Below are positions 3,292-61,869 of a stretch of 64,000 nt of DNA, piece by piece (the stretch's first letter is position 1; each line of letters begins with the position of its first letter). A program made the translations under genes and the position numbers. The DNA is from a virus, in IMG/VR virus record IMGVR_UViG_2915168811_000001; one strand, written 5' to 3'. The notes below the pieces were generated by a model that had not been told where the DNA came from, ran no database searches, and was given only the letters and a program-made list of their open reading frames with translations.

Positions 3292-3303
3292 CCGCGCATC
3301 ACT
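3292..3303 (+). promoter_or_regulatory. Class I box CCGCGCATCACT + hairpin
   Basis: Followed by GGTCGGA-CGC-TCCGGCC, SD and ATG 3342. Confidence 0.75.
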
Positions 3304-3341
3304 GCCTTCGAGGTCGGACGCTCCGGCCGCGAGAGGTGGCC

Positions 3342-3902
3342 ATGAGTGTGAACCCCGTCCTGTACTTGGACGTCGACGGCGTGATCAATTTCGCAGGCGG
3401 CCGCGGCTCGCACGCGAAGAAGTCCGGCCTTGGCCACACCCGGCGGACCAGTGTGTTCGCACGCTCAACTGTGCGCGCGTACGGAGCCCCTGCACCGGCG
3501 CCGCAGTCGTACGAGATTCGCTGGAGCGCCGAGCTGCTGCGGAAACTGTCCGCGATCGAAGGTCTCGACATCGTCTGGCTGAGCACCTGGCGTGACGCCA
3601 CCGCTGACCTCGAGCGAGCGTTGTCCTGGCGCGGTCCCGTCGGATGCCTCGACTGGGTTGACGGCCCGGCAGGGGCTGAGCATTCCGGGAAGGTGCCGGC
3701 GCTGCTGCAAGACCAGGCCTTCAGACCTCGCCCGTTCATCTGGGCTGATGACGAGGCCCACGACTTCTACCTCCCTGAACACCGCGCGCGCACCGCAGGG
3801 ACGCCGCAGCTGCTTATCGCCCCGGTCGAGAGCATCGGCCTGACTGCAGCCAACCTCGACGAGATCGCCGCGTTCGCGCACGAACACCGTGCATCACTGT
3901 AG
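3342..3902 (+). CDS. HAD-domain protein (RNA-repair-associated HAD type)
   Basis: LYLDVDGV, WLSTW, FIWADDE. Confidence 0.8.
   Translation: MSVNPVLYLDVDGVINFAGGRGSHAKKSGLGHTRRTSVFARSTVRAYGAPAPAPQSYEIRWSAELLRKLSAIEGLDIVWLSTWRDATADLERALSWRGPVGCLDWVDGPAGAEHSGKVPALLQDQAFRPRPFIWADDEAHDFYLPEHRARTAGTPQLLIAPVESIGLTAANLDEIAAFAHEHRASL
3887..3898 (+). promoter_or_regulatory. Class I box variant CCGTGCATCACT
   Basis: Lies in the last codons (RASL*) of the upstream gene; imperfect hairpin follows. Confidence 0.65.
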
Positions 3903-3947
3903 AGAGGTCGCAGCTGCGTCCCGCTTGCCGCCGTCGAAGGGACGCCC

Positions 3948-4295
3948 ATGGCCGACGAATTGATCCTGTTCCGAGTCGCCCTGGGGAGCACCCCAACCCG
4001 CGAAGAGGTGGACAGTCACCTTGAGACTTTGAGCAACAGAGACCTTGTGACGACCCAGCTCCTTATCGAACGGGACGGGGCCCGGATTGCAGGGCTGGAT
4101 AGGTCGACTTCGCATGAATGCGTCACCGCGACCGTCAACGGCCGGGCTGCCACCGAAAAGCGCAAGGACGACAAAGCCCGCCAGGTGTCCAGAGTCATTC
4201 TGCTGGCCGTGATTGGGGTCATGATCACGATGGTGCTCGTCCTGCCTGCGCTCGTGCATGGTGTCGAAAATTTCCTGACCTCCCACACCCATTAG
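3948..4295 (+). CDS. Hypothetical membrane protein
   Basis: SD GAAGGGA; C-terminal TM. Confidence 0.6.
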   Translation: MADELILFRVALGSTPTREEVDSHLETLSNRDLVTTQLLIERDGARIAGLDRSTSHECVTATVNGRAATEKRKDDKARQVSRVILLAVIGVMITMVLVLPALVHGVENFLTSHTH

Positions 4296-4330
4296 AACTT
4301 CTCACGAGACCACCAACCAGGAAGGGCGTC

Positions 4331-5017
4331 ATGCCTGAACCCACCATGCCCGTCTGGGCTGAACACCTAGCCGTCTTCGACACTGAGACGACCGGGACCG
4401 ACACGAACACGGACCGTATCGTTACGGCGACGGTCGGCATCATCGGTCCGTACGGCACCCTCGAGTTCGCGCGCTCCTGGCTGATCAACCCCGGCATCCC
4501 GTCCGCTCCGGAAGCGGTCGAAATTCACGGTGTCACCAACGAGCGCGCGGCCGCGGAGGGTGCCGACCCGAGCGTCGCGGTCGCGGCGATCCTTGATGCT
4601 CTGCACACAACCGGGCTGCCGGTTGTGGCGTACAACGCTGCATTCGACCTCTCCATCCTGCGCGCGGAATGCGAACGGTACGGCGTCGAGTTCGCGCTGC
4701 CGCCTGCGGGGATCATCGACCCGTTCATCATCGACAAGGCGAAGTGGAAGTTCCGCAAAGGTAAGCGCACCCTCGCCGTCGTCTGCGAGCTGTACGGCGT
4801 CGAACTGCTGGATGCGCACGATGCGACCGCGGACGCCGTCGCCGCCGGCCAGCTCGCACAGAAGCTCGTCACCCGATACCCGGGCATGGAGCCTGACGGG
4901 CTGCAGCGCCTACAAGCAATCTGGCAGCGCGACCAGGCCGCCGGCTATCAGGAGTTCCGCCGTCGAAGTGAGCCTGAGTTCGTCGTGGACAGCGGCTGGC
5001 CGGTGTACGACCGATGA
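4331..5017 (+). CDS. DEDDh 3'-5' exonuclease (DnaQ-like)
   Basis: VFDTETTG, AYNAAFD, HDATAD. Confidence 0.9.
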   Translation: MPEPTMPVWAEHLAVFDTETTGTDTNTDRIVTATVGIIGPYGTLEFARSWLINPGIPSAPEAVEIHGVTNERAAAEGADPSVAVAAILDALHTTGLPVVAYNAAFDLSILRAECERYGVEFALPPAGIIDPFIIDKAKWKFRKGKRTLAVVCELYGVELLDAHDATADAVAAGQLAQKLVTRYPGMEPDGLQRLQAIWQRDQAAGYQEFRRRSEPEFVVDSGWPVYDR

Positions 5018-5187
5018 CAGGCATACCGCTGATTGCAGCGATCCCCTTCGCGCTCAGCGTGCTGTTCGGCCTGGTTCTCTCCCTGTCCGGCAAGCGCGAG
5101 CTGCGTGTGCTGGCCACGGTGACCATAGTCGCTGGGGTGGCAGGCGTCGCTCTCTGTGCGCTCCTACTGCCCCTCATCTTCGGCTGA
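5014..5187 (+). CDS. 57-aa two-TM protein (not in ORF track)
   Basis: ATGA overlap with the exonuclease stop; hydrophobic. Confidence 0.55.
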   Translation: MTGIPLIAAIPFALSVLFGLVLSLSGKRELRVLATVTIVAGVAGVALCALLLPLIFG

Positions 5188-5199
5188 CCGCGCATAACT
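5188..5199 (+). promoter_or_regulatory. Class I box CCGCGCATAACT + hairpin
   Basis: Directly after a TGA; GCCGGA-CGG-TCCGGC, SD GGAGG. Confidence 0.75.
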
Positions 5200-5240
5200 C
5201 CAGGTGAAAGCCGGACGGTCCGGCCCACCTGGAGGTCGTC

Positions 5241-5645
5241 GTGAATGAGTATCTGCTGTCGCCCGCCGAGTTCAACGCGACTGCTCGCAAGATCGAAGCG
5301 ATCAACGCCCGCGCCGCCAAGCGCGGATTCACTGGCTCGTTCCGGCTCGCAGGTGTGTCGGAGATCATCCAGGAAACCAGCCCGACCGGGCTCCCCGTCG
5401 CGCGCGTGATGTACCGGTGCACGTTGGACGGCGAAGCGCCCAGCTACGGCGGCTGGCGCTTCCTCGCCGCGCTCGAGGGACTGCCCGCGGCCGGCGGCGG
5501 CGACGTCGCCTGGATTGTCCGTTGCGCCCCCGGGGTCAGCGACGAAGGGGTCGACCGGAGCACACTCCGCGTGGGCTTTTGCTCCCACTGCGGCGTCGCC
5601 CGCGCGAACCGCCGGAAGCTCTTCCTGGTGCAGCACGTCGAGTCC
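5241..5645 (+). pseudogene. 5' part of a ~394-aa conserved hypothetical gene split by an insertion
   Basis: 135 codons ending VQHVES join in frame to GEYRQVGSTCAKDFLG at 10441. Confidence 0.85.
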
Positions 5646-6113: not shown

Positions 6114-7205
6114 TCACCCCGACACCGTCGTAGGCGTGGACAGCTGCCGTTCCGCACGTGCCCGCAAGATCTTTCCGTAGAGGGTCATTCCGTCCCAATC
6201 GACGACCTCGTCACCGGAGTCGTCGGTCGCGACAGGAACCATAATTCGTTGGCGTCCTAGCCGATGGAGAGTCAACTTGTATCCGAATCCGAACTTCGGG
6301 ACGCACTGTTGCGTAAGCATTGTGACCAACATGAGGAGCGCCTCCTCAGTGGCATTCTCCGCAGCTGGCTCGAGCACCGTTACATCATCGGAGGCGTTGA
6401 ACGGCATCGGCTGGTACTTGGCGTGGCCGGTACCACCGTCACCGTTATAGATCAGCGAAACCCAGCCGCCGGGGAACAGCGCGGGGACGTCAGCAAGGCC
6501 TACGATGCTGTTATTGACCCGGGAGCCTGCAACGAAGGGCATCCGGCCCGGTTTGCGATGGGCCGCGATCAAGCGTTTCCCCTTATGAGCGTGGAAGATG
6601 CCGCGCTGCTGACGAGGCAAGTCGATGACGAACATCGGTGCAAACCTCAGATCCGGGAGGTCTGTGTCGGCAACGACGTCATCAGACGTGCGGGCGCTGT
6701 TTGCGCGAGTGACTGCGCGGGCAGTCAGTTCTTCACCGAGCCGCGTCATGCCCTCCCAGTCCACGACCCGGTCGCCGAAGTCGTCGGTCGTCACGGGGAC
6801 CATGATCCGGGTCTTCACGAGACGTGCCATGGAGACGCCATACCCCCACGAGAACTTCTGCATGGCCCTGCGCATGATCGTCGTCAAGAGTAAGCCGGAG
6901 TGAGCGTTCAGCAGCTTATGGCGAAAGATCAAGAAGTTCTGCGCCGTGTAGAAGGATACCGGCTGGTAGAAAGTCGCCTGGGTCTTGAGGGTAACGGTGA
7001 TGCAGTTACCAGCTTCACGGATAACACCCTGATCAGCGACAATCGCGGCAATGCTGTTCGCCGAATGCGTCTGACTGAGATACGGAACTTTCGGTTCACC
7101 ACTCTTGAGGTGAACCTTGTCAAACCAGGCCGACGACGACTTCATCGTGTCGAAGACATCTGTGATCAGCATCGGGGCGAACGTCAGATCATCATACGCA
7201 CTCAT
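6114..7205 (-). CDS. RM specificity subunit (BcgIB/HsdS-like, two TRDs)
   Basis: Duplicated KF.[WF]GY....RL...RIMVP...VVDW.GM blocks; overlaps the MTase stop. Confidence 0.8.
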   Translation of the reverse strand: MSAYDDLTFAPMLITDVFDTMKSSSAWFDKVHLKSGEPKVPYLSQTHSANSIAAIVADQGVIREAGNCITVTLKTQATFYQPVSFYTAQNFLIFRHKLLNAHSGLLLTTIMRRAMQKFSWGYGVSMARLVKTRIMVPVTTDDFGDRVVDWEGMTRLGEELTARAVTRANSARTSDDVVADTDLPDLRFAPMFVIDLPRQQRGIFHAHKGKRLIAAHRKPGRMPFVAGSRVNNSIVGLADVPALFPGGWVSLIYNGDGGTGHAKYQPMPFNASDDVTVLEPAAENATEEALLMLVTMLTQQCVPKFGFGYKLTLHRLGRQRIMVPVATDDSGDEVVDWDGMTLYGKILRARAERQLSTPTTVSG

Positions 7206-9208
7206 GCGTCATCACCGACCTCGAATCCCGTGCCCTTGTTATGCACCGGTGTAATGAGGGCACCATAACCATGGGTGTGCATGTCGACCTGCCAGGTGAT
7301 GTAGTCCGCCACCGTGGTGTAGAAGTCGTCGTAGGTCGGCGGCTGGTCGTTGAAATAGAAGTAGCTGTGCTGCCACTCGTCGGTCGCAATGATCTCTGAA
7401 CGCACCACAAACGATGTGTCATCGGGCACGCCGTCCCGGAGGACCTCAAGCAGATGCTTGCGCCGATCGGCAGCGCGCCCGTCGTCGACCAGGCCGACGT
7501 GTTGGCGGACCTTGTAACCATCGTCTTTGAAGTCCACGAAGGCAGTCTTCTTCGTCTCGGGGTGGGGTACCCCCGCTGTGAAGAGCGCAATGACTGCATG
7601 AGTACCGATGCCGTGGAACGTGTCCGGATTCATCGTTAAGACGGCATCAAGCGTGTGATGCTTGAGAATCTTCGCCTTGAGGGCCTTATCAACCTTGTTC
7701 TTCCCGACCATGGCAGACTGCGGGACGATCGCGGCGAGGCGGCCCCGAACTTCCAGCTGAGACAGCGCCCGCTCAAGGAAGGACAGTTCGGACAGGTGCC
7801 AGGTGGTCGGGTCCTTCGCCTGCGAATACGGCGGGTTCATGAGCACCTTCGTGAATCCCTCCAGACGACCAGGGCGCTCGGGGTTGTACGGGAAGAAATC
7901 GTCCCGTGTGGTGTCGAAGAAGCTCCTGCGCTGGAAATTCGCCTTTCCGTCACCGCGCAGGATCATATTCGTAGTGCCGACAGCGAAGAGTTTGTCCTGG
8001 AGTTCGACGCCATGCAGCTGGAACCTTTTGATCTCGTCGAGGCGTTCAGCGAGGCGAGTGGGGTCGCCACCATACCGCGTAGTTGCGTCGGCGAACATGC
8101 GGCGCATCGCAGCGATTAGGAACGCCCCAGAGCCTGCGGTCGGATCGAGCACCACGTCGTCACTGTTCACGTCGATCAGCTCGGCCATAAGGTCCGTGAT
8201 GTGGTGCGGTGTGAGCACGATACCCAGCGAGTTTCCGTCGGAGCCGCCGTACTTCACGAACTCACCGTAGAAGTTTCCCAGCACGTCGAACGCCGAGTGG
8301 GAGGGAGACGATACGACCTCGAAGACCTCATGATCGAGGATCTCCGTGAAGTGCTGGAGCGGTGTCTTCCCGAGATCGCGGTTCCGCTGGTTCAGCAACA
8401 CGTGACGCTTGATGAAGGCGAAGCGATCGAGCATGATCCCGATCTTCTGCTTCGGCCCAAGGTCGGCCTCGGGGCTCTCCAGGAACTCCTTCGCGGCGTT
8501 GTAGACTTTCTCGCCGTCCCGGTATCCGTTGCGCTGGTCACCGGCGAGGTCGGCGAGCAGTTCGGGGCGGTACTTGAGCGCCAGCAGGATCGCAGAGACC
8601 AGCGTCGCCTTGTTCTCGTTCTCCAACGAGGCGTAGTTGCGCATACCCTCGTGAAGATTTGCCGCCACCTTGCGAATCTCACGGACCTCGCGCTCCTCGC
8701 GAGGTAGCTCACCGAGCACGGCGACGCGGTAGTACTCGTTGATGTTCTCCGCCGCGAACGGTGTGAGCGTCTCCAGCCCGTCCAACACCCTGGACTCCGT
8801 CCGAGGAGCGACGAAAGCAATCGACATGTCGTAGTGACTCTCGGTACCGGCGACACCCACCGCGAAAACCTTCTTGCCGGTCCTATCAGCGAAGGTCTTC
8901 GCATAGTGCACGGCACCGTTCAGTGCGTATTTGACGCGCGCAGGAGGATCAAGTGCTATGCGGCCCTCCTCGTCGAGCATGACAGAGTCCTCGAACCGAG
9001 CCTTGTCCTCCACAACCACGATGAACTCGCCCGACTCAATGACGAACTCGGGCTTGCCTCGACCAGAACCATCGGACTTGGATGCGCCTTCGAGGGCCTC
9101 GTAGATGTAGGCGGGAGCGTCGGAGCAGCTCTGCTCCCACGGTCTGGGGTAGCCGATCTCACGCAACATGTCGCGTACGAACTGGTCGGTGCTTCTCTCG
9201 TTCCCCAT
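7202..9208 (-). CDS. Fused endonuclease/N6-adenine methyltransferase (BcgIA-like, type IIB/IIG)
   Basis: PEF...VEDK nuclease-like motif, LDPTAGSGAFL, MNPPY. Confidence 0.85.
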   Translation of the reverse strand: MGNERSTDQFVRDMLREIGYPRPWEQSCSDAPAYIYEALEGASKSDGSGRGKPEFVIESGEFIVVVEDKARFEDSVMLDEEGRIALDPPARVKYALNGAVHYAKTFADRTGKKVFAVGVAGTESHYDMSIAFVAPRTESRVLDGLETLTPFAAENINEYYRVAVLGELPREEREVREIRKVAANLHEGMRNYASLENENKATLVSAILLALKYRPELLADLAGDQRNGYRDGEKVYNAAKEFLESPEADLGPKQKIGIMLDRFAFIKRHVLLNQRNRDLGKTPLQHFTEILDHEVFEVVSSPSHSAFDVLGNFYGEFVKYGGSDGNSLGIVLTPHHITDLMAELIDVNSDDVVLDPTAGSGAFLIAAMRRMFADATTRYGGDPTRLAERLDEIKRFQLHGVELQDKLFAVGTTNMILRGDGKANFQRRSFFDTTRDDFFPYNPERPGRLEGFTKVLMNPPYSQAKDPTTWHLSELSFLERALSQLEVRGRLAAIVPQSAMVGKNKVDKALKAKILKHHTLDAVLTMNPDTFHGIGTHAVIALFTAGVPHPETKKTAFVDFKDDGYKVRQHVGLVDDGRAADRRKHLLEVLRDGVPDDTSFVVRSEIIATDEWQHSYFYFNDQPPTYDDFYTTVADYITWQVDMHTHGYGALITPVHNKGTGFEVGDDA

Positions 9209-9421
9209 GGGCAACACTCTCACTCACTGATTGCATCAAATATCTAACAATGACAGTACTTGACTACGCATGCTCGGAGCTAAAGCAACGCGCTGGAAGA
9301 TGCCCCGCACAGCGGGGCCGGGAGCCTCCACGAGAGCGGCGACGTGGCGTAAGTGCGTCGATTCACCGAGCACGACTGCCTGTCGCGCCAGCCGCTCTCC
9401 CAGACCTCGGAAGAGACCGCC

Positions 9422-9976
9422 ATGACCACCAGCACCGACATAGAGACCACACCCAGCGCCTGGATCGGCTGCCTCGCCTGCTACAACAACGGACGACTCG
9501 TAGGCGCGTGGTTCGATGCCGAGACTGCCGACACCGTGACTCTCGCAGATGTCCACGACGGCGCGAACCACGTGCGCCGAGACTGTGAGGAGATGTGGGT
9601 GCTGGACCATGAGAACATCCCTACCAAGGGCGAGATGAGTCCCTCGGAGGCCGCCGAGTGGGGTCGCGTCATCGTCTCGGTCCCCGAGCGCGATCGTCCG
9701 GCGCTGTGCGCTTGGGTCGCGTCCGGCGACTACATCGCGGAAGGAGCGGGAGACATTCCGTCGGTGAACGACTTCGAGGAACGGTACGCCGGACATTGGG
9801 ACAGCTTCCGCGACTACGCCGTGGACTTCGCAGAGGACATCGGGTTGCTGAACGACGCGCCAGAAACGCTGGCAACCTACTTCGACTGGGATGCCTGGGC
9901 TCGCGATTTGGCGATGGATTACACGACAGTGGCAGCAGGCGGTGGATGCGGCGTGTACGTCTTCCGCGCCCTGTGA
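9422..9976 (+). CDS. ardA: Antirestriction protein ArdA
   Basis: WIGCLACYNNGRLVGAWFD ... YFDWDAWARDL; acidic. Confidence 0.92.
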   Translation: MTTSTDIETTPSAWIGCLACYNNGRLVGAWFDAETADTVTLADVHDGANHVRRDCEEMWVLDHENIPTKGEMSPSEAAEWGRVIVSVPERDRPALCAWVASGDYIAEGAGDIPSVNDFEERYAGHWDSFRDYAVDFAEDIGLLNDAPETLATYFDWDAWARDLAMDYTTVAAGGGCGVYVFRAL

Positions 9977-9988
9977 GAGGAGGCGGTC

Positions 9989-10180
9989 ATGAGCGCAGAG
10001 TCCAACGCCCACAGCCACGCCCAGGACTTCCGTTGGTGGGTCGGCAACCCCGAGATGAGCGACGAGGAAGCGCACTTGCATGATCTACTCGCCCTGCATC
10101 GGGCGACGGGCGATCTGATCCGTGAGCAGCGTGACATCCTCGGGCATTATGACACCGACGTCGAACCTGCCCTCGTCTAG
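9989..10180 (+). CDS. Small hypothetical protein, 3' end probably created by a deletion
   Basis: SD GAGGAGG; runs into the antisense recombinase remnant. Confidence 0.5.
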   Translation: MSAESNAHSHAQDFRWWVGNPEMSDEEAHLHDLLALHRATGDLIREQRDILGHYDTDVEPALV

Positions 10181-10411
10181 GTCATCTACGAGCTGGGCGA
10201 ACCCCTCCCGTCCGCGTCTCGCATACCGAGAGGCCGAGCGGTCGTCATCACGGTACGACTGCGGGTGTGCTGACCAACCCTGGTCGGAGATCGCACGGAT
10301 GTTGTCGTCGTGCTGCTGGTCGGTGCTCTTGCCCCGACCCTTAGCGTCTTTGGAGACCCTCAGGTACTCCCTGGCTACCGTCTTGCGGGTCGTGCTCTTC
10401 TGACTACTCAT
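10160..10411 (-). pseudogene. Truncated large serine recombinase (N-terminal catalytic fragment)
   Basis: EYLRVS, YRDDDRSAS, REGFAQLVDDL; similarity stops after ~85 aa (left limit approximate). Confidence 0.8.
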
Positions 10412-10440
10412 CACTCACATCTATTAATAACTATATCTCC

Positions 10441-11949: not shown

Positions 11950-11961
11950 CCGCGCATCACT
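11950..11961 (+). promoter_or_regulatory. Class I box + hairpin
   Basis: CCGCGCATCACT; GCTGC-AGATC-GCGGC. Confidence 0.75.
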
Positions 11962-11998
11962 CCGGTGACGCTGCAGATCGCGGCCGGAAGGCGGACCC

Positions 11999-12250
11999 GT
12001 GAAGATCAAGACCCTTTGGGCAACCCGGAAATCTTGGGAGGGCCCTCCGGAGCTTCTCATCGCCCAGGACGAAGCCGGCATGGACGACAACTTCGAATGG
12101 TTCGCTGAGCGGCAGGCCATCGAACTGAAGGCAATGGGCGATGACCTCGGCGAGCACCGCGTCATCATGCTTGAGGTCGACGGATCGGCGATCGAGCGCG
12201 CGTTCACTGCGCCGACAGTTCCCGGGACAGTGCAGGGCACGACGTCGTGA
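11999..12250 (+). CDS. Hypothetical protein
   Basis: SD GGAAGG; follows box. Confidence 0.65.
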   Translation: MKIKTLWATRKSWEGPPELLIAQDEAGMDDNFEWFAERQAIELKAMGDDLGEHRVIMLEVDGSAIERAFTAPTVPGTVQGTTS

Positions 12251-12293: not shown

Positions 12294-12305
12294 CCGCGCA
12301 TCACT
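12294..12305 (+). promoter_or_regulatory. Class I box + hairpin
   Basis: CCGCGCATCACT; GGCTGCA-CGG-TGCGGCC. Confidence 0.75.
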
Positions 12306-12346
12306 GTGGTGAGGCTGCACGGTGCGGCCGGACAGGACGTCGCCTC

Positions 12347-12931
12347 ATGAGCATGAGAATGCTTGACCTCAACGACACCCTCACTCGGGATGTGTTTGTG
12401 CGCAGTTTGGTGCCGACCGAGACTTTCACTGTCAACTCAGTGAACCCCTATGGAGGCCAGCCCGAGAACACCCTGCTGTGGGTGCCGATCGCTGCGCTGC
12501 TCGGCGGGGCATGGATCGGCAGGCCGGTGAGCGATCTCGTGAAACTTACCGCAGCCGCAGCGTTCGACGATCCGTTCGGAGCTCCGAGATACCAGGTGTG
12601 GTCGCACGAGGTCGCAACCGGTGTGCCTCTGCGGATGCAACTGCGTGGTCTTGAGCAGGTCATTTACATAACCATGCTGCTTTGCCATGAGGCTTACGTG
12701 ATGCCTGCGCCGAGCTTTTCCTGCAAGCGCTGCGGGGCTGGGGTTGAACGGAAGCCGGAGCACTGGACGAGATGTGCTGGCTGCGGTTGGTCACGCAGGT
12801 GGGTCGTCGACCTGCATGCGCCCTGGCTCACCCTCGACCCACTCGAGCTTCACTTTGATCGAGAAGACGAGCGCCTCGTCACCGTCTGGTCCGACGAAAT
12901 CGCTACCAACCGCTCCAAAGGAGTCTCATGA
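12347..12931 (+). CDS. Hypothetical Zn-ribbon protein
   Basis: CKRC...CAGC. Confidence 0.6.
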   Translation: MSMRMLDLNDTLTRDVFVRSLVPTETFTVNSVNPYGGQPENTLLWVPIAALLGGAWIGRPVSDLVKLTAAAAFDDPFGAPRYQVWSHEVATGVPLRMQLRGLEQVIYITMLLCHEAYVMPAPSFSCKRCGAGVERKPEHWTRCAGCGWSRRWVVDLHAPWLTLDPLELHFDREDERLVTVWSDEIATNRSKGVS

Positions 12932-14043
12932 AACAGCTCTACTCCGGCGACCTGCGCGCCTACCCCGGCATCCCTGACCGCTGGTCTGGGCACAAGCGGG
13001 AGTACGCCGCGCGAGTGCTTAGCCTCCTCCAGAATGTGACGCCGGACCGCGACTTCACACCTGACCCAGAAGCGGACATCGAAGACTTCTGGGAGGACGC
13101 CGTCCGCCTTGCTGCGTCGTTCGTCGCCAGCCGCGGGGAGATGGATGTCGTCACCGGGAAGATCAAATGGTCTCCCGACGAACTCGAGCGCCGGTTGGGG
13201 CCAATCAGCTGGGATGAGGTCGGAGGGCGTCATTCCCGCGACCCGTTCATTGCGCACCCGTTGGTCCTGAAATACGGCGGCCGCGCAATGTCGCTCGCCA
13301 CTCATTGCAGCGAATGGCCTGACGACCCTTCCGGGGAGCGGGGCCCGCTCGACGAGGTCGACACTCTGGTGGACTGGATTGTCGCACGGAACGCGGCAGG
13401 GGTATCCGACGTCGTGGTGAAGAACGCACAGAGCAAGAGCGGCATCTGGGTGCTCCCGACCAGTTCGGACCGCGCCGAGGTGCGCGCTTGTGTGAGCCGC
13501 GCTCTCGAATGGACGGCCGTCAGGCTCGACGGTCTACGTGACGCACTGCTCGTGCAGGACATGGTCGACCTGGAGAGCGAGGTCCGCTTCTTCGTGGTCG
13601 ACGGCGAGGTCGTCACCGCGGCCGGCAACGTCGAGGAGTTCACTCCCCTGGACATGGTGTCCCGCCCGGATGACGGCTTGAGTGTCGAGCTCGGGGCCTA
13701 TGTGGATGCGCGTCTGCGCGTGCACCGCGGACACCTCACGCAGGGAGGCCCGTCCGAAATCATCCACGCCCCGGACACCATGCGCGCCCAGTTCCTTGCC
13801 GCGAAGCAGATCGCGGCCGAGCACGGCGGCACCATCGTGCTCGACATGGCGATGCTTGACGGCAGTCCCGTCCTGGTCGAAATCAACGAGCTCACGAACT
13901 CCGGGCTGTACGCATCCGATCCGTGGGCGGTTGCTCGGCGGCTGGTGACAGCCAAGGACCGCGGGTACGGGCAGCTGCGCGACAACCCGATCGGCGGCAT
14001 CGTGTTTCGCCAGAACGGGTGCGGCCGCGCATCACTGGAGTGA
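12928..14043 (+). CDS. ATP-grasp domain protein (R2K/DUF4343-like)
   Basis: EVRFFVVDG, VLDMA, LVEINELTNSGLY. Confidence 0.7.
   Translation: MKQLYSGDLRAYPGIPDRWSGHKREYAARVLSLLQNVTPDRDFTPDPEADIEDFWEDAVRLAASFVASRGEMDVVTGKIKWSPDELERRLGPISWDEVGGRHSRDPFIAHPLVLKYGGRAMSLATHCSEWPDDPSGERGPLDEVDTLVDWIVARNAAGVSDVVVKNAQSKSGIWVLPTSSDRAEVRACVSRALEWTAVRLDGLRDALLVQDMVDLESEVRFFVVDGEVVTAAGNVEEFTPLDMVSRPDDGLSVELGAYVDARLRVHRGHLTQGGPSEIIHAPDTMRAQFLAAKQIAAEHGGTIVLDMAMLDGSPVLVEINELTNSGLYASDPWAVARRLVTAKDRGYGQLRDNPIGGIVFRQNGCGRASLE
14025..14036 (+). promoter_or_regulatory. Class I box + hairpin
   Basis: Inside the last codons (RASLE*) of the upstream gene; GCCCGC-GCCC-GCGGGC. Confidence 0.75.
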
Positions 14044-14073
14044 GCCCGCGCCCGCGGGCCCCGAAAGGCACCC

Positions 14074-14412
14074 ATGTTTGAGCGCATCCCAGCTGGCATT
14101 CGCGAGCGAGCCGTTGTCGCGTATGCCAACGCGACGGAGTACCCACGCGTATTTGCCTACGACGAACTGACCGAGTTCGAGCTGGCGAAGTTCGAAGGGG
14201 ACGTCGAAGAAATCCACTACGCCCTGTTTGAGGCAGCCACTGGCAAGGACTGGGACGCGGTCCTCGCCGCGGCGGTCCGCCACCTGTACACGGTGTGCGC
14301 GCCTTCCGGGGATGGGGCAGGGCCGTTCGACACGCTCTCCGCCGAGGATCTCGCCTGGTGGCAGGACCGGGTCAAGCGGCCCGCCGAAATCCTGAAGGAG
14401 GCAGCGCGATGA
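14074..14412 (+). CDS. Hypothetical protein
   Basis: SD GAAAGG; follows box. Confidence 0.65.
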   Translation: MFERIPAGIRERAVVAYANATEYPRVFAYDELTEFELAKFEGDVEEIHYALFEAATGKDWDAVLAAAVRHLYTVCAPSGDGAGPFDTLSAEDLAWWQDRVKRPAEILKEAAR

Positions 14413-45916: not shown

Positions 45917-45983
45917 AAACCTGAGCAGCAATCCCGCCGCTCACCTCCAGCCGGAGAAACGAATCAAACTCAAGGAGAATAAA

Positions 45984-53593: not shown

Positions 53594-56131
53594 ATGGCAA
53601 AGAAAATCCAGACCGCACCCGAAATCCCGGTCTCCCCGCAGTGGGAAACCCGCTCCCTGAAGCCGCTCAGCGACGGACGAGTACCCGGTGTCGACGGATC
53701 GATGTGGCTGTACGGCAGCGTGCCGATGTCGGCGATCATCGACGCGAAGTCGATGGACAAAATGCTGGCCGGCGGCGGCAGCCTGCACTCCGTATACGAG
53801 GAGCTCGCGAAGCTCGCGTCCGCGGGAATCAACCGCGCAGCTTCGAAGGCGAGCTACCGCGAATTCCACCTGCTGCTGCTGAACGTGCCTTCATACTACG
53901 AGGCGCCGGAAAGCTCACCGATCCGCGGATACCTCAACACCGAGTTCCGTGACCGTATCGTGCAGCGCCGAGAACTTCTCTTCGGAGTAAAGCTGCGCTC
54001 GAGCGGCACCGCCGCTGCTGGAACCGGCAGAGAGAAGCTGAAAGGCGCGATCGACTCGTTCCTCTACACGCTGATGTACACCGGCACGCAGCTGTCCGAC
54101 TACGACCAAGATCACCGCGAAATCGCCGGCATCTTCTCCCGCGCCGGCATCACCATCCCCTCCAAAGACTCCCTGCGCTGGTCAGACTCCTGGTGGTCGC
54201 ACGGCCGCGCGAAAGCGATCCCAACTCTCCCCCACGACGACCATCTCCACTACATCTACGAGATGAACGCGAAACGGGAGATTGAAGCGAACTACGACGT
54301 CGCATCCTGCCGCAACTGGCCTGAAGGCGACGAGCGGATCCAGGGTGAATTCGCGATCTCGTTCACCGCGCTGAACAACCTCGACGTCGGCGTGACTTCT
54401 GTTGAGGATTCCGTGGTGCGCTGGGCCCCGGCGCTGCTGGACGCAGGCGCCCGCGTCATCTCCGTGCGCGGGACCGTGGAGCCGCAGCGCGTCACCCGAG
54501 CGCAGCTGAAATCGCAGAAGAAGCGCATCGAACAGGACATGGAGGCGTTCGCTGAGAAGAACCGCAGCTCCCCCGACGAGCAGCGCCAGCGCCGCGACGA
54601 GCTCGCGATGCTGGAAACCTCCTACGCCCGCGACGAAGCCCCAGCGACACTGTTCGACTGCTCGGTCATTGTCGGCTTCGACTCCGTCGTGGAAGACCTA
54701 CGGAAGGTGACGCCGGTCGCTCTCGACCTGAACCCGCTGACGAACCTGCAGGCGGCCGCGTGGTACGAAACAATGATCTGCTCCAACGTGCGCGCGAACC
54801 CGCTGAAGCAGGATCTGCCGTGCACGACGATCGCCTACGCGGGCATTTCGAACCTCTCCCAGGTCGGTGACCCACCCAAATCCCCCAAGGCCGCGCTACT
54901 GGGCTTCACGGAGCGCGACGGGCAGCCCGTGTACGTCTCAGCGAACGCAGCGTCGCTCGCAGACGGTTACCCCCTCATGATCGTGCCGGGGGCCACTGGT
55001 GCTGGAAAGTCTCAAGTGCTGCAGTGGCTCGCGCACCAGTGGGGTCTCGCCGGCGTCCCGCAGTACATCATCGACCCGAAGCCGAAGTCTGACTTCTCCG
55101 CAGCAGTGAAGGCATCCGGCGGTGACGTGCACTCGTTCGACGGGTTCATTGAGGCTGACGGCCCACTTGACCCGATCCGGTACGCCGGCCCCGCGAACCT
55201 GCAGCTCGGCGTCCAGATCGCCTCCGACATGCTCGCCCGGGTCCGTCCGCTCTCCACCGAGCTGATGAACCAGATGGAGACCCCGCTCGCGAACGCCATC
55301 CGGTACGGCGTCGAGCAGGGGGCGACCGCGACCGGCGAGGCGCTCATCATCGCGGCGAGGGACAACGTCATCCCGCAGAACATCGTCGATCAGATCGTCG
55401 GCTTCGCGCAGACGTACCCCATGTTCCGGGCGACGTTCGGCCTGCATCCCGGCACGTCGTCGCTGTCCGTCTCCGACGGCATCACGCTGTTCATGGCAGG
55501 CAACTCGCAGTTCGAGTTCCCGGCCGCCGGCGCAACCGACATCACCCTCGCGACCCCTGGCGTGCGCACTTCGGTGAACGTGATGCGTCAGCTGGTGCGC
55601 GCCTCAGTTATGAACCTGTCCGGCCGCGGCGGCGTCCTGCACATCGACGAGGAGTGGATCTACGAGCTCGCGGCGCCAGATGAGCTCGTGCAGCTTGGAC
55701 GTCTCGCCCGGTCACAGAACGTGCTCGTCTGCCTGTACACGCAGACGCCGAAGGGCCCGCTCAATCTCGGGCTTGGTGGCTTCATCTCACGCGGCATCAT
55801 CGGCCATATCCCCGCCGAAGGTGAGGATCGCAGCCAGGCTGAAGCTGGCTTGAAGCTGTTCGGGTCCACGTCCGGAGAGATCCTGTCACGAGTCGTCGCG
55901 CCCGGCGAGGAGTCAGGGCGGCTGAACTGGCATTCGCTGAAAGCTCTGTGGGAACGCAACGACGACGGCACCCGAACCCTGCACCGCCCCGCAGTGTTCT
56001 TCCACGCTGACCTGCATGGCAACATCGCCCCGGTTGAAGTGCAGATCCCGCCGTCGTTCTTCGAGCTCGCCTCCACGAACCCGGAAGACGTACAACGTCG
56101 CGAAGCGAAAGCCGCCGGAGCATTCGTGTAG
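53594..56131 (+). CDS. VirB4-like conjugative ATPase
   Basis: GATGAGKS, IIDPK, LHIDEEW, LYTQ; 845 aa. Confidence 0.85.
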   Translation: MAKKIQTAPEIPVSPQWETRSLKPLSDGRVPGVDGSMWLYGSVPMSAIIDAKSMDKMLAGGGSLHSVYEELAKLASAGINRAASKASYREFHLLLLNVPSYYEAPESSPIRGYLNTEFRDRIVQRRELLFGVKLRSSGTAAAGTGREKLKGAIDSFLYTLMYTGTQLSDYDQDHREIAGIFSRAGITIPSKDSLRWSDSWWSHGRAKAIPTLPHDDHLHYIYEMNAKREIEANYDVASCRNWPEGDERIQGEFAISFTALNNLDVGVTSVEDSVVRWAPALLDAGARVISVRGTVEPQRVTRAQLKSQKKRIEQDMEAFAEKNRSSPDEQRQRRDELAMLETSYARDEAPATLFDCSVIVGFDSVVEDLRKVTPVALDLNPLTNLQAAAWYETMICSNVRANPLKQDLPCTTIAYAGISNLSQVGDPPKSPKAALLGFTERDGQPVYVSANAASLADGYPLMIVPGATGAGKSQVLQWLAHQWGLAGVPQYIIDPKPKSDFSAAVKASGGDVHSFDGFIEADGPLDPIRYAGPANLQLGVQIASDMLARVRPLSTELMNQMETPLANAIRYGVEQGATATGEALIIAARDNVIPQNIVDQIVGFAQTYPMFRATFGLHPGTSSLSVSDGITLFMAGNSQFEFPAAGATDITLATPGVRTSVNVMRQLVRASVMNLSGRGGVLHIDEEWIYELAAPDELVQLGRLARSQNVLVCLYTQTPKGPLNLGLGGFISRGIIGHIPAEGEDRSQAEAGLKLFGSTSGEILSRVVAPGEESGRLNWHSLKALWERNDDGTRTLHRPAVFFHADLHGNIAPVEVQIPPSFFELASTNPEDVQRREAKAAGAFV

Positions 56132-56143
56132 GCGCATAAACAG

Positions 56144-56194
56144 AAACAGAAGCAGGGCCCTGCTCAGTTGACCATCAGGGCCCTGCTTCTGTTT
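56144..56194. terminator. Bidirectional terminator
   Basis: 19-bp perfect IR AAACAGAAGCAGGGCCCTG between convergent genes. Confidence 0.85.
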
Positions 56195-56210
56195 AAGGGT
56201 GGACAGTCGT

Positions 56211-56906
56211 CTAGTTTGAGGTCCATCCTGCGGGCAGTCGCACTGGGAGACTGTCCGACTCCATGATGTAGACCAGGTCGTGAGAGTCTTCCGGGCTGCC
56301 GTAGTTGAAGCTGAACTGTTCTGTATCGAAATCGAACCCTTCGTCCTCTTCCAGGCCGGTCTTCGCCTCAGATGTGTGGACGCAGATAACGGTGTCCTCT
56401 GCACCTGATCGAGGATTGATGATCTGCGGAGCCACCCACCCTTCGTCATCAGTGGTGCGTTCTGGACTGACGATCAACTCCGGATAGAGATGCTGCGCTT
56501 CGCGCGCCACGTTCTTCCCCACGGCGTACATCGCATATCCGTCGTCCGGATACTGCTTGAGGTGAGCCAGCATCGCGCCCTGGATCGCTGCGAGGCGCTC
56601 CGTCTGCGTCATGTTTTCGAGATGGCCGAACGGCGACTTGTCCTCGGGTGCTTCCGGATCATCGTCGTAGACGGCGCAGTCGTTGATGTTCACGCGGACC
56701 CGGCCGGTCCCTTCAATGGTGTCGACTTCGATGACGACGGCGCCGTCGATCTCCGACCGGTACTGGATCAATTCGACCGCGCCGGGCATGTCATCTCCGC
56801 TGGTGATCGGCGGCGCGGACACCTCCGGGCGGTTCTGGGGCGCCCACTGCCCGCCGATCTGTTCTCCGGCTTTTACGGCGCCGGCTGCCTGTCGTTGAGT
56901 GCTCAT
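56211..56906 (-). CDS. N-terminally tagged acidic hypothetical protein
   Basis: Tag RQAAGAVKAGEQIGGQWAPQNR. Confidence 0.75.
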   Translation of the reverse strand: MSTQRQAAGAVKAGEQIGGQWAPQNRPEVSAPPITSGDDMPGAVELIQYRSEIDGAVVIEVDTIEGTGRVRVNINDCAVYDDDPEAPEDKSPFGHLENMTQTERLAAIQGAMLAHLKQYPDDGYAMYAVGKNVAREAQHLYPELIVSPERTTDDEGWVAPQIINPRSGAEDTVICVHTSEAKTGLEEDEGFDFDTEQFSFNYGSPEDSHDLVYIMESDSLPVRLPAGWTSN

Positions 56907-56912
56907 GGGTGG

Positions 56913-56924
56913 GAGTATGTGCGG
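56913..56924 (-). promoter_or_regulatory. Class II box CCGCACATA, leaderless
   Basis: CCGCACAT + 10 nt + ATG at 56906. Confidence 0.7.
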
Positions 56925-57918: not shown

Positions 57919-57930
57919 CCGCGCATCACT
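57919..57930 (+). promoter_or_regulatory. Class I box with no intact downstream gene
   Basis: CCGCGCATCACT followed by a tnpB-like remnant. Confidence 0.6.
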
Positions 57931-57933
57931 GCG

Positions 57934-58047
57934 AACCCGGCCTTCACGAGCCGGCGCTGCAACTGGTGCGGACACATCGGCAAGGGGCACCACAGAAACC
58001 AAGCGGCCCGCTCCTGCGCTCAGTGCGTCTGCACCAGTAACGCCGAC
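57934..58047 (+). pseudogene. TnpB (IS200/IS605) Zn-ribbon remnant
   Basis: NPAFTSRRCNWCGH...RNQA..SCAQC..TSNAD. Confidence 0.55.
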
Positions 58048-58637
58048 TTCACCTCCAAGTCTGCGAGAGTCCCGTCGTTCAGGACTACGGCATCGAAATC
58101 GCCCGCGGTGAGCGCATGCTCGGACACATGATCTGAGCCGGCCGCGACCGGGTGACCCGGACGTTGGACCCATACGGTTTCGCCACCAAGCGTGGCCACC
58201 ATGCTGAGCTCGTTCGGAAACCGCACGCCAGTGACGAGGACTGTCGATCCAGCCTGCTGATGTGTGCGGATGCGACGGCTCACCTCATTCACCCAGGCGT
58301 CCTCACAAAGCTGACGGACAACGTCGGTGCCGAGCGCCTGCAGCATAGCCCGAACCTTCGGTACCCGCTTCGCCTCCACGTAGCCGGCCAGCTGAACGAC
58401 TCGGCTGACCAGCATCAGACCGCTCAACAGCGACCCATCAGGCAGCGTCACTAGGTCTTCGTTCTTGACGAGCACGAGCGGATCGATTTTTAGAAGCGCC
58501 TCAAGCAGAGGGTCGCTCATCCCAATCACCACAGCGTCGCTCCCGAGCTGCTCAGCGATGAAATTCGCCAGCGCGTCCTTACCGTGCTCCTTCGGGCCGC
58601 CGAGGCCGATCAGGCGAGGGGCGGGCGCCCCGTTCAT
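58020..58637 (-). CDS. Phage-type deoxynucleoside monophosphate kinase
   Basis: IGLGGPKEHGKD, R.MLQALGTD..R, VRFPNE, HVSE. Confidence 0.8.
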   Translation of the reverse strand: MNGAPAPRLIGLGGPKEHGKDALANFIAEQLGSDAVVIGMSDPLLEALLKIDPLVLVKNEDLVTLPDGSLLSGLMLVSRVVQLAGYVEAKRVPKVRAMLQALGTDVVRQLCEDAWVNEVSRRIRTHQQAGSTVLVTGVRFPNELSMVATLGGETVWVQRPGHPVAAGSDHVSEHALTAGDFDAVVLNDGTLADLEVKSALLVQTH

Positions 58638-58738
58638 ACCCGGCCCAGGAATCGGCGGCATTCGCAGCCACCAACGCCGCAGGACTTCTCGCCCGCATGA
58701 GCGCTCTTGCGGTGCTCGCACCACTGACAATCAGGCAT
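58634..58738 (-). CDS. 34-aa Cys/His microprotein (not in ORF track)
   Basis: MPDCQWCEHRKSAHAGEKSCGVGGCECRRFLGRV; SD GAGGAGG; ATGA overlap with the kinase. Confidence 0.65.
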   Translation of the reverse strand: MPDCQWCEHRKSAHAGEKSCGVGGCECRRFLGRV

Positions 58739-58789
58739 GATGCCCTCCTCGAAGTTGATGGGTCGCCCGGATGGCTAGCCCTCCATTAC

Positions 58790-58801
58790 AGGTATGCGCG
58801 G
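58790..58801 (-). promoter_or_regulatory. Class I box variant CCGCGCATACCT
   Basis: Upstream of the microprotein/kinase unit. Confidence 0.7.
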
Positions 58802-60020: not shown

Positions 60021-60041
60021 ACGGCGACGGTCAGCGCGAGC

Positions 60042-60917
60042 TCACAGGGTGATGAGCATGTTGCGCGGTTGGGTCCGCTTCGGGAACGGGGTGCGCATAT
60101 TCTTCTTGCAGCCGTGATGGGCAGAGTATGTGCGATGCATCGCGACCATTGCGATACCTTCACTCTTCTTAACTACTTCGCCACAGAAGTGACACTTCTG
60201 CCGGCCCGGTGCCGGACCTGTCTCAAGAAGCTTGTCCCACTCAATTGCATGGGTGAACATCTGTTTCACGACGTCGTCCGGCTCACCGTTCATAGCGAAA
60301 AGCAATGCCGCTCGTGCTGCGTCGCGTCGTATTGCGCCGGGGCTGCTTGCGGCTTCTGCGAAACCGGGGATCAGCTCGGCCAGACGGCCCTGCTCTGAAT
60401 CAAAAGTTGGCTTCTTCGTCAGCAGCGGCTCAGGGTCGCGAGGCCCTTCCAACGCCTCGGGGATCCAGACGACTTTGGCGTATGTCGCGTCGATGACGTA
60501 ATCCTCCCCATCTTCGAGCTCCTCATCCTCGTCAGGGGCGAGGGACTGCATGGCGAACATATTGTCGACGATTTCTCTGACCTTCGGATTGTGGTCGATC
60601 GCATGCTTATCTGGGCCAAGAACCTTCGCAAGATTCCAGTGATCGTCTTCCTCGCCGAATCCCAGAATGAGGTATTCAGCTTCAGGATGCTCAGCCTGCA
60701 CGAGGTACGCCGCATTTTGCAGCAGCAGCTTCTCTTTGCGCAGCTGAGCGATGGCAATCTGCTCGGTGATGGCTGCGAGCTCGTTTTCGTTCATCGACTG
60801 GACGGCGAGCGGCGGACCAGAAGCTTCAGTGCGATGCGCCTGCGCGAACTTCCCGCCCATGGACACTCCAGCAGTTCGGGATCCCGCATCATGGCGGCGT
60901 GCATTCAAGTTGCTCAT
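60042..60917 (-). CDS. N-terminally tagged hypothetical protein
   Basis: Tag RHDAGSRTAGVSMGGKFAQAHR; C-terminal CHFC...H.GC. Confidence 0.75.
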   Translation of the reverse strand: MSNLNARRHDAGSRTAGVSMGGKFAQAHRTEASGPPLAVQSMNENELAAITEQIAIAQLRKEKLLLQNAAYLVQAEHPEAEYLILGFGEEDDHWNLAKVLGPDKHAIDHNPKVREIVDNMFAMQSLAPDEDEELEDGEDYVIDATYAKVVWIPEALEGPRDPEPLLTKKPTFDSEQGRLAELIPGFAEAASSPGAIRRDAARAALLFAMNGEPDDVVKQMFTHAIEWDKLLETGPAPGRQKCHFCGEVVKKSEGIAMVAMHRTYSAHHGCKKNMRTPFPKRTQPRNMLITL

Positions 60918-60923
60918 GTCAGA

Positions 60924-60935
60924 AGTGATGCGCGG
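60924..60935 (-). promoter_or_regulatory. Class I box, leaderless
   Basis: CCGCGCAT + 10 nt + ATG at 60917. Confidence 0.75.
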
Positions 60936-60963
60936 GGAAGCCAGAATCAAGACTTAGGTGCAC

Positions 60964-61656
60964 TCAGCTGACAGGCAACATGACGCTCGGCCGATGCCAG
61001 TACAGCTCGTCGTAGCTTCTCTTCGAGCTGGCCACGGTGGCGATCCGGCCGTTCCATGGCAGCCAGTCGGCACCCTCCTGGTCGCAAGCGATGACCTGCC
61101 CTCGGCGCGCCTGTACCCAGTCGCTGAGCTCGGAAAAATCGATGTCCCTGTTGGAGTGCGTGTAGCGGCCGCCCCGCGTGCGATCCCATCTGCCGGCCCC
61201 TGCTTGGTAGGGCGGGTCGATGAACCAGGTCGCCTCAATGTCGGGGGCGTCCCGGTAGTCGCCGTGAACGACCTCAAAATGCCGGCAGTCGTCGATGACC
61301 TCGGCGAGATGCCTGATCATCGGATCGAAGCGAGCCGCCATGCGTTCCGTCACCCGGAACAGTGCCGGAGTATCGCGGGTGGTGCGGCCAGCCGCGAACG
61401 CGACCAGCAGGTCGTCGCACCACTCCCCCGCTGTCGGCGTCGGTCTTGCGAGGATCTCCGCGGTGCTCAGGCCGAGTAGGTGTACCCAGAGGTCGGCGAC
61501 GCGGTCATCGCGCTCCACCAGGATCACCCGGTCTACGCTGCGTCGATGGTGGACTGCGTAGCCCGCAGCGCCCGCGAAAGGTTCGACGATGGTGCGCAGC
61601 TGGGGCGCGGGATATTGGGGTGCGAGGCGGCGTTTAGCGCCGTAGAACTTGAACAC
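60964..61656 (-). CDS. Orphan Dam-like DNA adenine methyltransferase
   Basis: FYGAK, VEPFAGAAG, FIDPPY. Confidence 0.85.
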   Translation of the reverse strand: MFKFYGAKRRLAPQYPAPQLRTIVEPFAGAAGYAVHHRRSVDRVILVERDDRVADLWVHLLGLSTAEILARPTPTAGEWCDDLLVAFAAGRTTRDTPALFRVTERMAARFDPMIRHLAEVIDDCRHFEVVHGDYRDAPDIEATWFIDPPYQAGAGRWDRTRGGRYTHSNRDIDFSELSDWVQARRGQVIACDQEGADWLPWNGRIATVASSKRSYDELYWHRPSVMLPVS

Positions 61657-61818
61657 TCAGCAGGACTGATCGCAGGGGCGCGACCAGCAGGTGTAGCAGT
61701 CCACCGGCGAGTACAAGCACTGGTCGATCGCATCTCCGTCTGAGTCGAGGTCACCGTGGCAAGCAGGACATGTGCCAGCAATAGAGGGAGTGTCTACATC
61801 TGCACAGAAGTTCGCCAT
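61657..61818 (-). CDS. 53-aa Cys-rich protein
   Basis: CPAC...CYTC...CDQSC; SD GGAG. Confidence 0.65.
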   Translation of the reverse strand: MANFCADVDTPSIAGTCPACHGDLDSDGDAIDQCLYSPVDCYTCWSRPCDQSC

Positions 61819-61857
61819 GGCGCTCCAGACGGGCCGCACGGTGCAGCCTTCACCTGT

Positions 61858-61869
61858 ATTGATGCGCGG
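61858..61869 (-). promoter_or_regulatory. Class I box variant CCGCGCATCAAT + hairpin
   Basis: GGCTGCA-CCG-TGCGGCC. Confidence 0.72.

Follow-up and report, generated by a model that had tools for sequence, protein, structure and literature searches.

A covarying stem-loop follows a repeated promoter-like box in the gene leaders of a large actinobacterial conjugative element

Gene content of the window and distribution of the box

The stretch analyzed here (64,000 nucleotides (nt) of IMG/VR virus record IMGVR_UViG_2915168811_000001, hereafter the window) is part of a 217,787-bp contig and represents a conjugative element that is large and of Micrococcales type; its establishment and anti-restriction genes form an extended array almost entirely on the plus strand. 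Many of its genes are preceded by a short repeated word, referred to as the box, and in most of these leaders the box is followed by a hairpin that is real and maintained by selection. The VirB4-like AAA_10 ATPase of the window (53594-56131) has relatives in Leucobacter, Rathayibacter, and Oerskovia, and an M23 peptidase and a single-stranded DNA-binding protein (SSB) are also encoded. The gene set also includes a DarB-like methylase-helicase, ImpB/UmuC, DprA, PNKP-type and HAD phosphatases, an R2K ATP-grasp protein, a Macro domain protein, an RNase H, and a sortase. No nucleotide match of the window was retrieved from phage and plasmid collections, and a scan of cultured-genome contigs with the helicase alignment returned distant helicases only (27-31% identity).

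The box is the 12-mer CCGCGCAT(CACT). The word CCGCGCAT was counted 23 times in the window compared with 6.6 expected, and none of 100 shuffles reached 23. Twenty-two CCGCGCAT copies were located in short intergenic gaps, oriented with the next gene and beginning 0-6 nt past the upstream stop codon. Of the 25 box copies in the window, 21 were on one strand and four on the other, each sense to its own gene. No conserved -35 element was found upstream of the box, where the sequence was without conservation. A metagenome pattern scan for the box plus GTGAG yielded single chance-like matches only and no clusters, and a literature search for the box 8-mer yielded unrelated primer matches only.

Positions are given relative to the CAT of the box (CAT+n). 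Two forms were distinguished. In the leadered form, a Shine-Dalgarno sequence (SD) precedes the start codon, which in most copies is found 41-47 nt downstream of CAT. In the leaderless form, the start codon lies exactly 10 nt after CAT in the window (copies at 1622 and 44761 and minus-strand copies at 60935 and 56924) and 9 or 10 nt after it in four related metagenomic elements (L003/L014, L001/L004, L012, and L013), so that the CAT-N9/10-ATG spacing is fixed in 10 leaderless copies of the window and its relatives. The leaderless copies of the window are as follows.

1622-1642, plus strand: CCGCACAT-N10-ATG, no hairpin; the gene behind it (1640-2668) is sigma-like
44761-44781, plus strand: CCGCACAT-N10-ATG, no hairpin
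60915-60935, minus strand: CCGCGCAT-N10-ATG, no hairpin
56904-56924, minus strand: CCGCACAT-N10-ATG, no hairpin

All four genes (1640 and 44779 on the plus strand, 60917 and 56906 on the minus strand) open with ATGAGC (Met-Ser), as does L004:11956. The leadered copies are listed below with their hairpins and, where noted, a second helix around the hairpin (outer helix).

3292-3344, plus strand: cassette with box 3292-3303, hairpin 3312-3328 (7 bp, one T.G, loop cgc), SD, and ATG 3342 of a HAD-family gene
5188-5243, plus strand: cassette with box variant CATAACT, inner hairpin 5210-5224 (6 bp), a 9-bp outer helix reaching the SD, and GTG 5241
11950-12001, plus strand: cassette with hairpin 11970-11984 (5 bp, T.G, 5-nt loop) and GTG 11999
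12294-12349, plus strand: cassette with hairpin 12313-12329 (dominant type, 7 bp, T.G) and ATG 12347
14025-14076, plus strand: cassette with hairpin 14044-14059 (6 bp, 4-nt loop, divergent arms) and ATG 14074
19228-19281, plus strand: leadered box of a helix-turn-helix (HTH) gene, no convincing hairpin
19950-20004, plus strand: cassette with hairpin 19973-19985 (5 bp) and ATG 20002 of a DprA-family gene
22524-22576, plus strand: cassette with short hairpin 22547-22557 (4 bp plus flanking pairs) and ATG 22574 of a PNKP-type phosphatase
24187-24244, plus strand: cassette with hairpin 24207-24223 (7 bp, with T-A in place of the T.G of the dominant type), an outer helix of up to 10 bp that includes the SD, and ATG 24242 of a helicase
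26520-26577, plus strand: cassette with hairpin 26541-26557 (7 bp, divergent arms), an outer helix of 6-8 bp, and TTG 26575 of the DarB-like methylase-helicase
31330-31386, plus strand: cassette with hairpin 31350-31364 (5 bp, 5-nt loop) and ATG 31384
35028-35125, plus strand: cassette with hairpin 35048-35064, its SD serving a 14-codon open reading frame (ORF) at 35081-35125
37747-37801, plus strand: degenerate cassette with box CATTTCT, hairpin 37767-37783 with two C.A mismatches, and ATG 37799
38092-38145, plus strand: cassette with hairpin 38112-38126 (6 bp) and ATG 38143
40029-40085, plus strand: cassette with box CATACCT, hairpin 40049-40067 (7 bp, T.G, 5-nt loop, divergent arms), and GTG 40083
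42400-42453, plus strand: cassette with hairpin 42421-42437 (6 bp, G.T, 5-nt loop) and ATG 42451
43108-43161, plus strand: cassette with hairpin 43129-43145 (6 bp, G.T, 5-nt loop) and ATG 43159
45905-45986, plus strand: long-leader copy of the SSB gene with hairpin 45923-45942 (one A.C) and start codon 45984
58736-58801, minus strand: leadered box variant CATACCT before a 34-aa Cys-rich ORF, no convincing hairpin
61816-61869, minus strand: cassette heading a divergent unit, with hairpin 61848-61832 and ATG 61818 of a 53-aa ORF

Several observations were made at or near these copies. The stop codon of the 14-codon ORF at 35081-35125 overlaps (ATGA) the ATG at 35122 of an 869-aa ORF (35122-37731, plus strand), an arrangement that looks like leader-peptide translational coupling. 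The small Cys-rich ORFs behind two minus-strand copies (58634-58738, 34 aa; 61657-61818, 53 aa) contain CxxC pairs and may encode zinc-ribbon proteins. At 57919-57954 (plus strand), a perfect box with a hairpin (57937-57954) has no ORF behind it and aims into the 3' end of the convergent minus-strand gene 58020-58730, where it may drive an antisense or small RNA. A covariance model also retrieved two weak, degenerate plus-strand copies without a clear stem (19-21 bits), at 3886-3951 and 1087-1143, with the words CCGTGCATCACT and CCGCGCACAACCACT plus GGTGAGG, respectively.

Geometry and significance of the leader hairpin

A first-pass annotation of this DNA had placed a hairpin shortly after the box and had quoted seven of its stems, all of which were found at the copies named. 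Seventeen of the 20 leadered window copies carried a GC-rich stem of 4-7 bp with a 3-5 nt loop, starting at CAT+12 to +16 (8-12 nt past the 12-mer) and ending 13-19 nt before the start codon, which bears out that placement. The exceptions were 19228 and the minus-strand copy at 58801, without a convincing stem, and the degenerate 37747. The SD followed the stem, as the annotation had described, at a distance of 0-6 nt.

For the folding analysis, the 20 window leaders and 18 leaders from related loci were used, and the minimum free energy (MFE) of each was compared with that of 300 dinucleotide shuffles. The 38 leaders gave a mean z of -1.73, with z below -2 in 13 of them and a Fisher combined p of 6e-14. 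Random segments of the window had a mean z of 0.01 and an MFE of -7.0 kcal/mol, as opposed to -13.0 kcal/mol for the leaders (Mann-Whitney p 7e-11). The ten leaderless copies were unstructured (mean z +0.60) and lacked the stem, in agreement with the annotation. A search of the whole window against Rfam 15 returned no match at the gathering score and one chance-level match at the E-value threshold.

Twelve of the 20 window copies shared one stem type (dominant GGCYGCA-N3-TGCGGCC), and approximately 35 nt comprising the box, GTGAG, and stem were nearly identical across six or seven window copies. The loops had no conserved sequence, and the stems differed inside one element. No T-tract was found after the box hairpins of the window, the tails of which open with the G/C-rich SD sequence, and an intrinsic (Rho-independent) terminator was thus excluded. 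One exception was seen in a relative: at L013:19417-19491, in the leader of a UvrD-like helicase gene, a stem of 9-12 bp at CAT+2 is followed by a T6 tract, and this structure looks like a terminator or attenuator.

Covariation within the element and among its relatives

The annotation had also claimed that pairing is kept while the stem sequence changes, and had proposed a covariation check on aligned copies. In a MAFFT alignment of 19 copies (A1), 80.5% of the stem cells were paired compared with 74.1% after shuffling (0 of 500 shuffles), and double-change cells numbered 8 compared with 3.2 (1 of 500). In a model-fitted alignment of 28 sequences (A8), which is biased towards structure because it was fitted to the structure, 79.3% of the cells were paired compared with 67.6% after shuffling (0 of 500) and 27-48% in slid controls; double-change cells numbered 18 compared with 6.8 (0 of 500), and compensatory changes were observed in six of the seven pairs. 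Independent support for the retention of pairing came from the related elements and orthologous leaders.

The helicases of the four relatives are 46-47% identical and their VirB4 proteins 64-66% identical to those of the window. All four retained the box and a hairpin in the same place, with the stem starting at CAT+8 to +15 and with unrelated stem sequences; several unrelated stems were present within the single elements L003, L004, and L013. Between orthologous leaders, one compensation from G-C to A-U and three C-to-T stem changes, each yielding a G.U on the sense strand, were identified, and the loops and unpaired flanks were free to vary. The helicase gene is leadered and has the hairpin in the window, whereas its orthologs in three relatives are leaderless, which ties the hairpin to the leader. 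A Leucobacter relative (L002, VirB4 55% identical) had no such cassette in its transfer region.

Wobble pairs and the strand question

According to the annotation, the non-Watson-Crick positions of the stems were mostly G-T on the sense strand, which would point to that strand as the one that folds. This claim did not survive symmetric scoring, under which 18 G.U and 17 A.C positions were counted (10 and 8 in the fixed columns of A1); a count of 14 G.U to 1 A.C proved to be an artefact of scoring G.U as a pair. The sense strand was more stable than the antisense strand in 25 of the 38 leaders (Wilcoxon p 0.18). When only the inner core was considered, a trend of approximately 8-11 G.U to 2-3 A.C was seen, to which one T.G column of near-identical copies contributed 5-6. 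At that column, the window has C-G, U.G, and U-A versions of one stem, and C.A only in the degenerate 37747; this series is anecdotal, though suggestive.

Promoter reading of the box and a candidate reader

We infer from the sequence that the box is the -10-like core of a -35-less promoter private to the element, with transcription starting at CAT+7 to +11. This reading is based on the fixed leaderless spacing, the purine at CAT+7 (40 of 48 copies, 83%), the box copies that head divergent units (the minus-strand copies at 61869 in the window and 16804 in L013), and the near absence of sigma-70-type promoter-like sites, of which 0, 0, and 1 per 20 kb were found at window positions 1-60000 compared with approximately 2.4 expected from shuffles. 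A second promoter class, GGATCGYATGTGT, was observed in three exact plus-strand copies (46747, 51097, and 52448) in the transfer-gene region.

The ORF at 1640-2668 is a candidate reader of the -35-less box. Single-sequence searches of this ORF against Pfam, NCBIfam, and PDB gave no match. The profile of its family matched almost only sigma factors in PDB, over regions 2-3 (best E 5e-4), the family profile being the sole source of the sigma-like assignment, and Pfam Sigma70_r2 was touched by five of 46 relatives. A Foldseek search with the whole model retrieved nothing at E <=0.001, with sigma factors recurring among the weak rows, and the last 110 residues or so had no match to anything.

Outer helix and accessibility of the SD

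While the inner stem of the first-pass annotation was confirmed, a second, outer helix had been overlooked. In about a third of the copies, CAT+1 to +10 pairs with the nucleotides just 5' of the SD, and sometimes with the SD itself; the strongest outer helices were those of 5188, 24187, 26520, 35028, L004:2848, and L012:3863. The mean duplex energy of this helix was -7.15 kcal/mol within copies compared with -5.58 kcal/mol between copies (permutation p 2e-4), and both halves of the 5' arm contributed. As the 5' arm lies mostly upstream of the predicted transcription start, the outer helix would be possible only in read-through RNA or in DNA.

The unpaired fraction of the SD was 0.48-0.51 in RNAs modelled to start at CAT+7 to +11 and 0.35 in read-through RNA (p ~1e-4 to 5e-4). 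In five copies (5188, 24187, the minus-strand copy at 61869, L004:2848, and L012:3863), the SD was almost fully paired in read-through RNA; for the copy at 61869, which heads the divergent unit, it was paired from every modelled start. An exchange of upstream sequences between copies did not support masking of the SD in read-through RNA as a general, copy-specific effect: the unpaired fraction was 0.349 with the native upstream sequence and 0.388 with swapped ones (p 0.28). It is improbable, in our estimation, that the two-tier stem-loop serves to distinguish transcripts by their start site and makes translation of a gene dependent on the firing of its own promoter. If this were true, RNA initiated at the gene's own promoter, lacking the outer 5' arm, would have only the protective hairpin at its 5' end and leave the SD open, read-through RNA would form the full outer helix, occluding the SD region or creating a processing site, and dependence on the own promoter would hold even within long terminator-less gene arrays.

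Interpretation of the hairpin and rival explanations

We favour a structure that is selected in a single strand, in gene sense and linked to the leader, between the promoter core and the SD; we infer that this strand is RNA, that the structure lies at its 5' end, and that its effect is stabilizing. We have about even confidence in an explanation of this kind, in which the hairpin would be a 5'-terminal or 5'-proximal RNA stem-loop in the transcripts of the private promoters and act as an mRNA stabilizer that keeps the SD clear. The proposal was derived by analogy with the leaders of ompA, papA, aprE, and T7 phi10. In this mechanism, the box would probably be read by host RNA polymerase with the element-encoded, region-4-less sigma-like protein; transcription would start at CAT+7 to +11, and the first 20-30 transcribed nt would fold into a GC-rich stem-loop that opens 1-6 nt from the 5' end and ends just before the SD. 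The 5'-proximal stem-loop and the adjacent ribosome would hinder decay that depends on the 5' end (pyrophosphohydrolase, RNase E, and RNase J), and the stem-loop would prevent the upstream sequence from pairing with the SD. The geometry is consistent with 5' proximity, with stems beginning at CAT+11 to +16 and a start at CAT+7 to +11 predicted from the leaderless spacing and the purine preference. A 5'-terminal stabilizer would be expected to open its stem within about 0-4 nt of the end of the transcript. The first-pass annotation had preferred a 5'-terminal RNA stem-loop or a sense-strand DNA hairpin to a double-stranded DNA operator; its single-strand reading is supported and RNA near the 5' end fits the geometry, the word terminal depends on the predicted start, and the argument drawn from wobble pairs falls.

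Several points weigh against the stabilizer proposal. The outer helix implies some selection on read-through RNA or DNA, and the asymmetry of sense-strand wobbles was rejected by symmetric scoring, the A1 columns, and sense/antisense folding, all of which were non-significant. A start at CAT+11 would leave 1-5 nt unpaired, which is borderline for protection. In L013, one stem begins at CAT+8 (L013:12037) and that of L013:19417, with its T-tract, at CAT+2. The presence of one stem type in 12 of the 20 window copies means that their similarity is partly common descent. The leaders of the three GGATCGYATGTGT copies contained no comparable GC hairpin, which indicates that the hairpin is not general to the leaders of the element.

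We considered that the hairpin is an intercistronic processing or 3'-protection site. In long read-through RNA from the closely packed co-directional genes, the two-tier stem-loop would be cut by an endonuclease (double-strand-specific or other) or block 3' exonucleases, so that the upstream cistron would end in a hairpin and the downstream one would start just before its SD. In favour are the copy specificity of the outer helix and its use of nucleotides that precede the likely start. Read-through is expected since terminators between the genes are absent, and the hairpin lies 20-35 nt past the upstream stop codon. We judge this rather unlikely: the inner stems of 4-7 bp, and the two-tier structures of 11-17 bp found in few copies, are short for RNase III (approximately two turns of double-stranded RNA), the outer helix is missing from two thirds of the copies, a 3' hairpin of this kind is absent from genes that precede leaderless copies, and the minus-strand copy at 61869, at the head of a divergent unit, has no cistron upstream of it. 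Alone or together with the outer helix, the stem-loop could also set the accessibility of the SD (by masking, standby, or coupling) or bind an element-encoded regulator, as might be suggested by the stem ending so close to the SD, the nearly full pairing of the SD in five read-through copies and its more open state in short RNAs, and the single stem sequence in 12 of the 20 window copies. However, masking was not copy-specific, and a sequence-specific binder is made unlikely by unconserved loops and by stems that differ within the element; translational control or a protein handle is thus unlikely as the explanation.

The remaining explanations were given little weight. An operator in double-stranded DNA, an inverted repeat bound by a dimeric regulator of all box promoters, would fit a 17-bp near-palindrome just past the promoter core, one type of which is dominant in the element, and an HTH gene is present at 19279-19599. 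Nevertheless, in at least five window copies the arms differ in sequence and pairing persists, the two arms change in concert, unrelated palindromes occur within single relatives, the loop length ranges from 3 to 8, and no half-site is conserved across all sites, which makes an operator very unlikely. Frpo-type single-stranded DNA promoters of plasmid leading regions are present on the transferred strand only, as long hairpins with the -35 and -10 inside them. A sense-strand DNA hairpin, acting as a priming or promoter signal on the transferred strand during conjugation, would suit a conjugative element (VirB4-like ATPase, M23 peptidase, SSB, and DarB-, ImpB-, and DprA-type establishment genes) with 21 of 25 window copies on one strand; we regard it as highly improbable, given that four window copies and the minus-strand copy at 16804 in L013 are on the other physical strand, sense to their own genes, that the stems of 4-7 bp have no box inside, that sense G.T would be A.C on a template transferred strand, and that a constant spacing between hairpin, SD, and start codon suggests a role in gene expression. 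There is an equally slight probability that the hairpin has no function of its own and is a passenger in a promoter-leader cassette spread by duplication or recombination. The near identity of approximately 35 nt in six or seven window copies would be expected from such spread, but not the compensatory substitutions seen inside the element and among orthologous leaders of its relatives, or the maintenance of stems while flanks and loops vary.

Comparison with known systems

The leader of phage T7 phi10 is a 5' stem-loop of the stabilizer type. The mRNA-stabilizing 5' stem-loops of E. coli ompA and papA and B. subtilis aprE, and the need for unpaired 5' nucleotides, have been reviewed (PMC3997798). 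The cassettes resemble these four leaders in that a short, stable stem-loop is 5'-terminal or nearly so and the SD comes close behind, such that promoter, hairpin, and SD form a compact unit. They differ in that one module stands before approximately 20 genes and recurs with other stems in relatives, and in that the outer helix of a third of the copies reaches upstream of the probable start, the 5' end here being a predicted one.

In phage T7, many promoters are followed by RNase III sites, which are long irregular hairpins cut by that enzyme, and a single-subunit polymerase transcribes from these promoters. The element is similar in having many element-specific promoters in tiny gaps between co-directional genes, several with an immediate RNA stem-loop that would shape mRNA ends, whereas a single-subunit polymerase and long stems were not seen in it. 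The promoters of the phage N4 virion RNA polymerase are template-strand DNA hairpins upstream of the start, which are themselves the promoter. Their likeness to the cassettes is a stem of 5-7 bp with a 3-nt loop beside conserved bases; the difference is that the hairpin of the element lies downstream of the box and that leaderless copies have none. The nut site of phage lambda comprises boxA and boxB, has a conserved boxB loop, and is present once or twice per operon; a lambda-type nut site was rejected, as no loop consensus was found and more than 20 sites are present in 64 kb.

Among repeated gene-start modules described in actinobacterial mobile elements, SAS/ESAS (start-associated sequences and extended SAS) of Cluster K mycobacteriophages comes closest. 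SAS is a 13-bp sequence, GGGATAGGAGCCC, which has the SD within it and stands 3-8 bp ahead of the start codon, and about half of the SAS have an adjacent imperfect inverted repeat of 17 bp with a conserved consensus and a variable spacer (ESAS; PMC3203893). Both systems consist of an asymmetric repeat at the starts of a subset of genes, oriented with the gene, in an actinobacterial host, and the function of SAS is also unknown (PMC3203893). In the element, the word is approximately 50 nt before the start and resembles a promoter core; stem length is 4-7 bp, and stem sequences are poorly conserved from element to element. Membership in SAS/ESAS was accordingly rejected because word, position, and stem length differ and the architecture alone is alike.

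Late promoters of phage T4 are read by gp55 and have no -35. SigN of the B. subtilis plasmid pBS32 is a plasmid-encoded sigma factor (PMC6751061). In both cases, as may be so here, a mobile element has its own sigma-type factor and promoter set, and only a -10-region word is conserved. This likeness is to the box and not to the hairpin, a leader hairpin not being described there, and the reader in the element is only a candidate.

Implications

Most likely, the hairpin belongs to an ordinary class of leader structures that is here deployed unusually systematically. Its unusual aspects are the systematic reuse, the leadered and leaderless forms of one promoter, and the outer helix. If the proposed stabilizer role is correct, approximately 20 window genes of a giant actinobacterial conjugative plasmid would be run from one portable module of promoter, 5' hairpin, and SD, in a region that includes the anti-restriction and DNA-repair establishment genes. 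This would be a phage-like expression layout that is not known from plasmids of this group. For expression work in high-GC actinobacteria, the module would be a natural part already tested in a host, and the approximately 40 natural stem variants could be used to test 5' structure against mRNA life and translation where RNase E and RNase J coexist.

Other features of the window

A block of minus-strand genes at 6114-10414, which includes an N6 DNA methylase (7202-9223) and contains no box copy, breaks the co-directional array and may be inserted cargo. A long, perfect inverted repeat of approximately 19 bp per arm, with A/T runs on both sides, was identified at ~56138-56200, in the gap that separates the end of the VirB4-like gene from the convergent gene 56211-56906. 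It differs markedly from the box hairpins and looks like the true bidirectional terminator of the element.

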